DNA of 55,987 nucleotides, counting the filler, from Dugesia japonica (lineage: Eukaryota): the NCBI GenBank assembly GCA_001938525.1. It is 6 parts of 6 records of this genome, joined end to end, with 100 filler letters (N's around TTAATTAATTAA, not from the genome) between each part and the next. Parts side by side here need not be neighbours in the genome. Positions count along the whole stretch, not along the records: positions 47,402 to 55,987 come from MQRL01624493.1; 5 more parts are not named here. One strand, 5' to 3'. The position numbers and the translations under genes were made by a program. Shown here piece by piece: positions 51,783-53,360 of this stretch (the first letter of the stretch is position 1; each line of letters begins with the position of its first letter). The notes under the pieces are model-generated. The model searched no databases. It was given only the letters and a program-made list of their open reading frames with translations, and was not told the origin of the DNA.

Positions 51783-52385
51783 TTATCCCTTCATTTGGTC
51801 CTTAAATGATTCTTCTATTAATTTCTCTAACTTTTGTACTTCTTCGCTGGTATTCTTGATATGGTTTGGCTCTGATGCTCTGGCGGTCAATTTATCCGTT
51901 TTTATATCCAATTTTACCATCTCTTTTAACTCGTATTTTCTTCGAATGGGGGGCTCTACCATTCCCCATGGTAATTGAATCTCCAGAGGTTCATACACTC
52001 TTATCCAGTTCCATTGTACTAATGTACGGTGAAATACATGAATGGATGTTAGTAATTCTTTGCTAACAATATCTGTGCATGGCATACATAGTTTTTTAAT
52101 GACGGATTGGCGAATTGGTGCTTGACTCGGTATTTTAATTCGGGATCCATCACAGTCTTTCCTAAACCAATTTTCTGGTCTGGATAACCATGTTCGTTGT
52201 TGGTAAGTGGTCTTTAGTGCATTTTTTATTATAATTTGTGTTTGCTTGATACATTGTGAACAATTTTCTTCCAATTGTAGTACTGAAAGTAGACACGTTA
52301 TCTGCGTAATATGCCTGCAGCTTTCATCAGGTTTTGGTGTCCGGCTTCCATGGCTTTTCATTGTATAGAATATAGTGGCTCTCAT
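51783..52385 (-). CDS. Unknown Cys/His domain, copy 2
   Basis: 200-aa ORF that aligns by eye with 52872-53360. Confidence 0.65.
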   Translation of the reverse strand: MRATIFYTMKSHGSRTPKPDESCRHITQITCLLSVLQLEENCSQCIKQTQIIIKNALKTTYQQRTWLSRPENWFRKDCDGSRIKIPSQAPIRQSVIKKLCMPCTDIVSKELLTSIHVFHRTLVQWNWIRVYEPLEIQLPWGMVEPPIRRKYELKEMVKLDIKTDKLTARASEPNHIKNTSEEVQKLEKLIEESFKDQMKG

Positions 52386-52871
52386 AGCCCCGATTACAAG
52401 TGGTCAACGCATTTGATTATCTGAACCAAAAGATACATTTTTAAGGTTTTGTGGTACAATGATTGATTTATCATTAATCATAGATAATGTTTTTTGGGCT
52501 TGAGGCATTTGATTAGTGTTTGGTGCCTCAACTATTTTAGACATAATTAGTTTATTCGATAATTTAATTCCTTGGTGGCTAGTGCAATATTTCCAGTGTC
52601 CATGTTTTCGTTTCCGATTTTACTATGAAACTCCTGACGTGAAGCCAAGCTATCTTTCATTTTCCTTTCTTTTCTTTGTTTGCCTGCATACTTTAATGCG
52701 CCATCTTTCAATAACCTCGTTATTTTCTGCTACTATGTTTCTATCTTTTCATCGTCTTTTGGTTGCATGTCCGTTTTCCATTCCGAATTTACTTCTTTCT
52801 CCGTTAGTTCCCTTCCCCATTTTCTTCAGACTCAGCGTCCTCGCTGAGACTTCTTTTCCTTAATAATGATT

Positions 52872-53360
52872 CTAGACGACTCCATGGCGGAGGGTCAACT
52901 GGTTTAGACCATAATACCATACTATTAATATCGTATGGAAATTTTCAATAGCTCGCGTGAGAGTTTCGTTATAGATGCTGACACAACGTTCGCATAGGGT
53001 GTGTACCTCGTTCTGCTCCAATGGTGCTTGAACTGTCAACTTGTCATGCATTTTCGTAAATCTTCTTCTACTAAGTTCGTCTTGTTGTAACAACCAAAGT
53101 CTGCGCCCAGCGACTTCCCGTAATGCTGTTTTTAAAATTGATTGCATTTTCCGTATGCATGTCAGGCAATTGGCCTCCATTAGTGTTGGTGAGATTGGGC
53201 ATGTCACTCGAAAAAAGTGAGCAAAACAGTTTTCTGGTACTGGTGTCTGTGTTCCTCTTGGAATTATACGATATAGTGTTGTGATACCCAATGCTTTAAC
53301 TAAATGGCTTAACTGACTTAATACGAATACTGGGATTGACGATTTTCCGAGTATCATCAT
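52872..53360 (-). CDS. Unknown Cys/His domain, copy 1
   Basis: 162-aa ORF directly after the integrase C-terminus, with two CxxC pairs. Confidence 0.65.
   Translation of the reverse strand: MMILGKSSIPVFVLSQLSHLVKALGITTLYRIIPRGTQTPVPENCFAHFFRVTCPISPTLMEANCLTCIRKMQSILKTALREVAGRRLWLLQQDELSRRRFTKMHDKLTVQAPLEQNEVHTLCERCVSIYNETLTRAIENFHTILIVWYYGLNQLTLRHGVV

Follow-up and report, generated by a model that had tools for sequence, protein, structure and literature searches.

The giant Burro elements of planarians encode a 4,873-aa polyprotein in which env lies in frame between gag and pol, and which contains BIR and ankyrin motifs (PMC6431247). According to the available excerpt of PMC13465017, which cites Lee 2026, Burro1 carries a BIR+RING gene, 'B-IAP', that protects planarian stem cells, and elements of the Burro type are among the few retrotransposons reported to be helpful to their host. 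Elements of GAG-ENV-POL organization with a gB-type env occur in flatworms, nematodes and bryozoans, with six of them in Schmidtea mediterranea (excerpt of PMC13524379). Much of the Burro-type polyprotein is unannotated; here, one orphan module that is kept in duplicate is marked out in an element of the planarian Dugesia japonica.

A duplicated Cys/His domain downstream of integrase

The window, i.e., the whole stretch of DNA that was analysed, comprises 55,987 nucleotides of the D. japonica assembly GCA_001938525.1, filler included. On the minus strand of its last part (MQRL01624493.1), we identified, in order, RNase H fragments, integrase, the integrase C-terminal domain, a first open reading frame (A), a linker, a second open reading frame (B), a membrane protein, a decayed ORF, a BIR+RING gene and a last ORF (Table 1). 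The element is assigned to Ty3/gypsy by the RNase H followed by a gypsy-type integrase, both present in the window. It is truncated upstream of about 55.26 kb, with gag, protease and RT absent from the window. No long direct repeat flanking the element was found; its 5′ part is missing, and its 3′ end lies at an N gap. The IAP-like gene, located in the 3′ region of the element, has one stop in the window copy and no apparent introns.

Table 1. Features of the element in the window, in order along the minus strand.
Feature	Position	Strand	Remarks
RNase H of pol, two frames	54974..55247	minus	Pfam RT_RNaseH E 7e-19, RT_RNaseH_2 E 4e-6
Ty3/gypsy integrase, zinc-binding domain and core	53722..54960	minus	Pfam Integrase_H2C2 E 2e-15, rve E 4e-14
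Integrase C-terminal domain, in another frame in the window copy	53420..53680	minus	resembles the tails of relatives; tblastn to L004 E 9e-8; weak MLVIN_C match (E 0.14)
ORF A	53372-52872	minus	166 aa from stop to stop; 162 aa from first Met
Domain A, orphan Cys/His domain	52911..53303	minus	core of about 131 aa; within ORF A
Charged low-complexity linker between A and B	52404..52870	minus	stops and frameshifts in the window copy; other copies differ at the breaks
ORF B	52403-51783	minus	206 aa; 200 aa from first Met; same frame as ORF A
Domain B, second domain copy	52005..52397	minus	within ORF B
Hydrophobic signal-like segment	51596..51646	minus	hydropathy peak
Decayed type-I membrane protein	50060..51595	minus	ectodomain without family match; anchor near 50212-50162; tail with PPxY motif
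Decayed accessory ORF rich in Ser, Gln, Glu and Leu	49301..50008	minus	no family
IAP-like gene	47946..49145	minus	BIR about 48866-48708, RING about 48104-47979; Pfam BIR E 5e-13, zf-C3HC4_3 E 6e-12
Accessory ORF, coiled-coil-like by eye	47405..47883	minus	runs into assembly gap

A preliminary description of this DNA had reported two ORFs of 162 and 200 aa that align co-linearly, and both were recovered where it had placed them, together with the motifs that it quoted for each. BLASTP aligned A with B without gaps (78.2 bits, E 4e-23, 40/131 residues identical), and their Smith-Waterman score of 202 was reached by none of 5000 shuffles, which had a mean of 31 and a maximum of 59. At the DNA level, the identity of A and B at codon positions 1, 2 and 3 was 48, 51 and 39%, respectively, and dN/dS was 0.29 (NG86) or 0.44 (LWL85), with dS saturated. 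As the identity is lowest at third positions and dN/dS is low at a saturated dS, we concluded that A and B are a genuine old tandem duplication of an orphan domain constrained at the protein level, as had been surmised from the sequence at first.

The positions common to A and B are T-P-x-P, H29, C35, C46-x2-C49, W70, Q-A-P, C104-x2-C107, F-H123 and W129; a further cysteine occupies position 27 in B and, in A, the position before it. The eight Cys/His positions per domain suggest that two zinc ions could be accommodated, making a zinc-binding helical domain a plausible reading. Binding of two zinc ions per domain, through C-x-H-x5-C-x10-C-x2-C and C-x2-C-x15-H, is fairly probable. An AlphaFold model computed on the two-row alignment of A and B reached a pLDDT of 34, which is uninformative, and the best Foldseek match of that model (E 3.5) is meaningless given such a model.

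A scan of the window for the domain scored A and B only. A candidate third copy near 51440-51333 (minus strand), which weakly resembles the first helix of the duplicated domain and is missing its cysteines, was not significant (62/2000 shuffles, profile score of 3.6 bits, hhalign probability of 0.5%). A two-fold repeat inside the domain was likewise not significant (best, 241/3000 shuffles), and an extension of the similarity to a Pro-Trp motif that follows A in another frame was weak (117/2000 shuffles).

The preliminary description had not recognised the family, and our searches of Pfam, PDB sequences, PHROGs and 1.84 billion cluster representatives agree with it, as none returned a known-family match. 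Pfam gave nothing above its cut-off for A or B (the top match for A was zf-AD at E 0.29; there was none for B), and no relative of the domain was found in PHROGs (best E 0.13) or among PDB sequences (best E 0.86 and 0.91). HMMER retrieved 0 matches to the domain from the 1.84 billion representatives, and a word search of 5.8 billion clusters yielded the domain in 0/343 candidates of near length and in 0/1232 of longer length. Pattern scans found it in 0/321 stretches of viral contigs and in 0/168 stretches of metagenome contigs, and the ESM Atlas gave no usable match for domain B. All domain profiles were built from two sequences, and their sensitivity is therefore modest. The best integrase matches in protein collections were 40 to 61% identical (40% over the full length, 61% over a part). 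Because the profile has two rows and even the integrase has no close relative in these collections, the orphan status is limited by the databases, and it may reflect merely the poor coverage of the elements of these animals in protein collections.

Elsewhere in the window, which is A+T-rich, we observed, at 6132-9098 (minus strand), a Ser/Thr-rich open frame of 988 aa that contains a single C2H2-like finger (weak Pfam match), probably a large host exon and presumably of the ZNF608/609 type. Two ORF fragments at 27077-29035 (minus strand), with no Pfam match, are reminiscent of Polinton/Maverick genes, and the fragments at 31557-31922 (minus strand) and about 44300-45300, also with no Pfam match, of hAT-type transposases. 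Two G+C-richer ORFs (134 and 148 aa) at 13325-14245 (minus strand), with no family above chance, are possibly the remains of another element. At 22700-25400 there are several short tandem arrays, whose periods are about 29-56 bases, and a dispersed MITE-like repeat occurs at 17727-18032, 30644-30842, 35714-35808, 41481-41627 and 46075-46155, with a long inverted pair at 17791-18032.

Other copies of the element and its reading frame

Three DNA contig runs, each from a different study, all covered 30/30 bins between 47410 and 55987, and most of the contigs were less than 95% alike; 659 and 494 contigs fell on 1151 bases around A and the linker. The window element is thus a decayed member of a multicopy repeat family. 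The IAP-like gene is also multicopy in the DNA runs, its linkage to the element being seen in the window copy.

The stops of the window copy were compared with the contig depth of other copies in two of the runs (X1 and X5), for which 40 of the 68 differing places are listed. The depth that differs from the window copy was 1547/1582 (X1) and 506/517 (X5) at place 53375, 1154/1163 and 496/502 at 52735, 1241/1346 and 425/471 at 52731, and 825/911 and 427/439 at 52406. At four of the five stop codons that interrupt the open stretches between the integrase tail and B, at least 90% of the other-copy depth differs in both runs. For the fifth (53422-53420), the only indication of a difference is one loose-end group (6 contigs) in a single run, and for the stop at 53724-53722 it is homology. 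Additionally, contig pieces and loose ends revealed length differences near 53670, 53405, 52915, 52810 and 52560; the support for these is weaker than for the stops, as none appears at the 60% threshold in the indel table of X1 and X5. Near 52810, their shares were 125/459, 84/217 and 27/226; near 52560, the difference was carried by one contig in one of the three runs and by loose-end groups of 5 and 7. Among the 20 listed places in domain A at which the window copy differs, 5, 7 and 8 fall on codon positions 1, 2 and 3, respectively, an even spread that is expected after the death of the element.

Since most copies differ at the bounding stops and the relatives described below read in frame past integrase, A and B are likely parts of a pol polyprotein. 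It is highly probable, on these comparisons, that integrase, A, linker and B are translated in the family as a single chain with a membrane-anchored protein at its end, as in the relatives, and that the stops and frameshifts of the window copy represent decay. Contig pieces extend up to about 530 bases and none covers one domain plus the linker; the integrase-A-B continuity is thus a composite in which different subfamilies could be mixed. Few contigs fall on the junction between B and the membrane protein. In a quarter of the reads of one raw RNA run, the depth over 51.1-53.4 kb was 0-0.45.

Two features would fit another arrangement, in which A and B would each be an accessory gene of its own, with expression from spliced or subgenomic RNA, as in complex retroviruses: each ORF has a Met near its start in the window copy, and the relatives possess separate downstream ORFs. 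That no single contig proves read-through is also in its favour. However, the stops upstream of both ORFs differ in at least 90% of the other-copy depth, and the separate ORFs of the relatives come only past the membrane anchor, and we regard this arrangement as quite unlikely.

Integrase relatives and the cargo slot

Integrase relatives were collected as the best 80 of 530 confirmed metagenome stretches plus two viral loci, and a quick IQ-TREE search was performed on 75 of these 82 loci, with 7 dropped for a match of less than 200 residues or a reversed orientation. The window, a long branch in this tree, grouped with six loci (L001-L006) in a seven-row set (SH-aLRT 97), to which it is 46-51% identical in integrase, and a seventh locus, L007, was placed as the sister of this set (SH-aLRT 93). 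None of the 82 loci carries the duplicated domain or an IAP.

In L001 and L006, a single frame of more than 3100 aa encodes a Monjiviricetes-type fusion glycoprotein (Pfam E 1e-90 and 5e-94, respectively) upstream of protease, RT, RNase H and integrase, and in L001 gag zinc knuckles precede the glycoprotein. Env upstream of protease was thus found in L001 and L006, the two clade loci that have more than 7 kb of upstream DNA, as well as in the sister L007; this region is absent from the window. In five of the six clade loci, the exception being the short, broken L005, the frame remains open for 585-1338 aa past the PYHP motif of integrase, and its end is formed by a signal-like segment, an ectodomain and an anchor. 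Long open frames past integrase are also present in other clades of the tree.

The layout after integrase in L001-L006 is that of the window; the cargo differs, being protease, ankyrins or nothing in the relatives and the duplicated Cys/His domain in the window. The slot before the signal contains a second protease and ankyrins in L002 and L003, a second protease in L004 and nothing in L001 and L006. Counted in codons past the PYHP motif, the window has its signal at about +800, its anchor at +1280 and its end at +1330, and L002 and L003 have their signal at +851, their anchor at +1258 and +1265 and their end at 1338 and 1326, respectively. Based on this agreement in spacing, A and B occupy the place of the protease/ankyrin cargo of L002 and L003. 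The match is one of layout alone, as the post-integrase parts of the relatives have no sequence similarity to the window.

Past the membrane anchor, in the place of the window's IAP-like gene, L002, L003 and L006 encode a DEDD/RNase T exonuclease in separate ORFs at L002:9043-10371, L003:8592-9920 and L006:10540-12027. Degenerate relatives of this exonuclease were noted by eye, with no Pfam exonuclease match, at L002:7268-8740, L003:6861-8246, L004:5011-6525 and L001:9958-11778. The second aspartic protease was detected by Pfam in frame after integrase in L002:3-7106, L003:1-6660 and L004:1-4773; it is followed in L002 and L003 by ankyrin repeats and by another stretch that, by eye, looks like a degenerate protease. 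An internal signal-like segment followed by an ectodomain and a hydrophobic anchor was observed at the polyprotein C-termini of L001-L004, L006 and L007 and at 51646-50060 in the window, and a PPxY motif is present in the tail in L004 and the window.

The preliminary description had raised the possibility that A and B form one polyprotein with pol and env. The pol part of this proposal holds piecewise, since the stops are not shared by other copies and the frame of the relatives is open far past integrase; the env part is probably incorrect. A search of the downstream membrane protein in three frames, with X at stops, gave no Pfam match, and hence none to an F-type or gB-type fusion glycoprotein, whereas the same library detects the upstream glycoproteins of L001 and L006 at the E values given above; decay, however, lowers the sensitivity of such a search. 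Because the glycoprotein of the clade lies between gag and protease, and given this negative search, the downstream protein is probably not a fusion env. It is better read as a putative second, C-terminal membrane protein of the clade.

Taken together, these data suggest that A and B, the products of an old tandem duplication, are likely in-frame cargo of the giant pol of a decayed, multicopy Ty3/gypsy element and are predicted to bind zinc and host proteins, a composite reading that we consider evenly balanced between right and wrong. The family would make one giant polyprotein with A and B as accessory modules in it; the element's own protease would cut this polyprotein and free the modules, which might, alongside the IAP, go on to bind proteins of the host, a role that would also fall to the ankyrins that relatives have in this slot. 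By analogy with these relatives, we rate such a release by the element protease followed by host-protein binding at slightly below an even chance. A host-directed adaptor role is favoured over the alternatives (integrase tethering, separate accessory genes, a degenerate ZAD or RING) because the slot in the relatives is empty or filled with protease and interaction modules, and because the element carries an IAP.

The most serious alternative would keep A and B fused to integrase, which they would tether to chromatin or DNA, thereby choosing insertion sites. In chromoviruses, a C-terminal chromodomain of integrase steers the choice of insertion site, and tandem zinc modules often read chromatin or DNA, a general property that fits this alternative; A, moreover, starts about 65 codons past the integrase C-terminal domain, likely in frame. 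Against it, the slot looks interchangeable rather than core, being empty in L001 and L006 and occupied by protease with or without ankyrins in L002-L004, and Pfam returned no chromodomain, PHD or zinc-finger family match. We therefore view tethering as doubtful.

Alternatively, the domain could be a far-diverged zf-AD, or a RING with one site kept, acting in dimerisation or ubiquitin transfer, which we estimate to be of low probability, similar to that of separate accessory genes. The likeness to zf-AD (ZAD, PF07776), the top Pfam match for A, consists of two CxxC pairs with a spacing of about 55 residues and of a predicted helix after them. The domain differs from zf-AD in its extra C, H, C and H positions, and the score of A is 11.8 bits, far under the Pfam gathering score of 28, with no match for B. 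With regard to the RING, the element itself carries a RING gene, and the C-x-H-x5-C-x10-C-x2-C spacing resembles the second half of a RING; however, no RING profile matched, the eight-ligand cross-brace spacing is not present, the first RING ligands are missing, and hhalign of the domain with the element's own RING gave a probability of 1%. Least credible of all is the notion that the duplicates are passengers without function in the element, for although the window copy is dead and its differences in domain A are evenly spread over codon positions, the Cys, His and Trp residues are conserved ungapped at a saturated dS and the open frames are common to many copies.

A broader extension of the host-directed reading, which we regard as improbable at present, is that A and B represent a new two-zinc fold released by an endogenous virus of the Burro clade to inactivate or divert a pathway of the host in its stem cells, be it transposon silencing, cell death or ubiquitin. 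If true, the slot past integrase would serve in general as an exchangeable cassette, and besides its fusogen the clade would possess a second, undescribed membrane protein. A dead copy and database coverage limit the significance of the finding; the duplicated module is a concrete target for the determination of a fold and a host partner, and throughout the clade the stretch past integrase looks like a slot for exchangeable cargo with a membrane protein at its end.

Comparison with Burro and other flatworm elements

Literature word searches, which cannot prove absence from print, found the domain nowhere named, and the available excerpts of PMC8532177, PMC11410931, PMC13238120 and bioRxiv 10.64898/2025.12.11.693146 contain no domain descriptions. 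The six S. mediterranea elements with an HSV/gB-type env (Smed_errantivirus_1-6) are treated for gag, env and pol in the excerpt of PMC13524379, which does not describe cargo past integrase. In that excerpt, the env rows of Smed_errantivirus_1 and _2 are similar by eye to the L001 glycoprotein; no counterpart of this env is visible in the window, whose env region is missing.

The closest resemblance is to Burro (GYPSM1, Burro-1 to -4), the giant planarian Ty3/gypsy elements, which have a gypsy pol in common with the window and a giant polyprotein with many accessory domains, to which the window element may be likened. The BIR+RING 'B-IAP' of Burro1 (excerpt of PMC13465017) has a parallel in the BIR+RING gene of the window. 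The Burro env between gag and protease and the Burro ankyrins (PMC6431247) are also found in the nearest integrase relatives of the window, whereas the ORFs and frames of the window scanned between 47.4 and 55.3 kb gave no Pfam ankyrin match. Burro exceeds 30 kb in length, and the window shows about 8 kb of the element. The available portions of the Burro descriptions name neither a duplicated Cys/His domain nor a C-terminal membrane protein, a comparison made by description and not by sequence, and the domain may already be present, unannotated, in published Burro sequences. On these descriptions, the window element is Burro-like and may belong with Burro. As cargo, the duplicated Cys/His domain is new; the giant Ty3/gypsy element that carries it is of a known kind.
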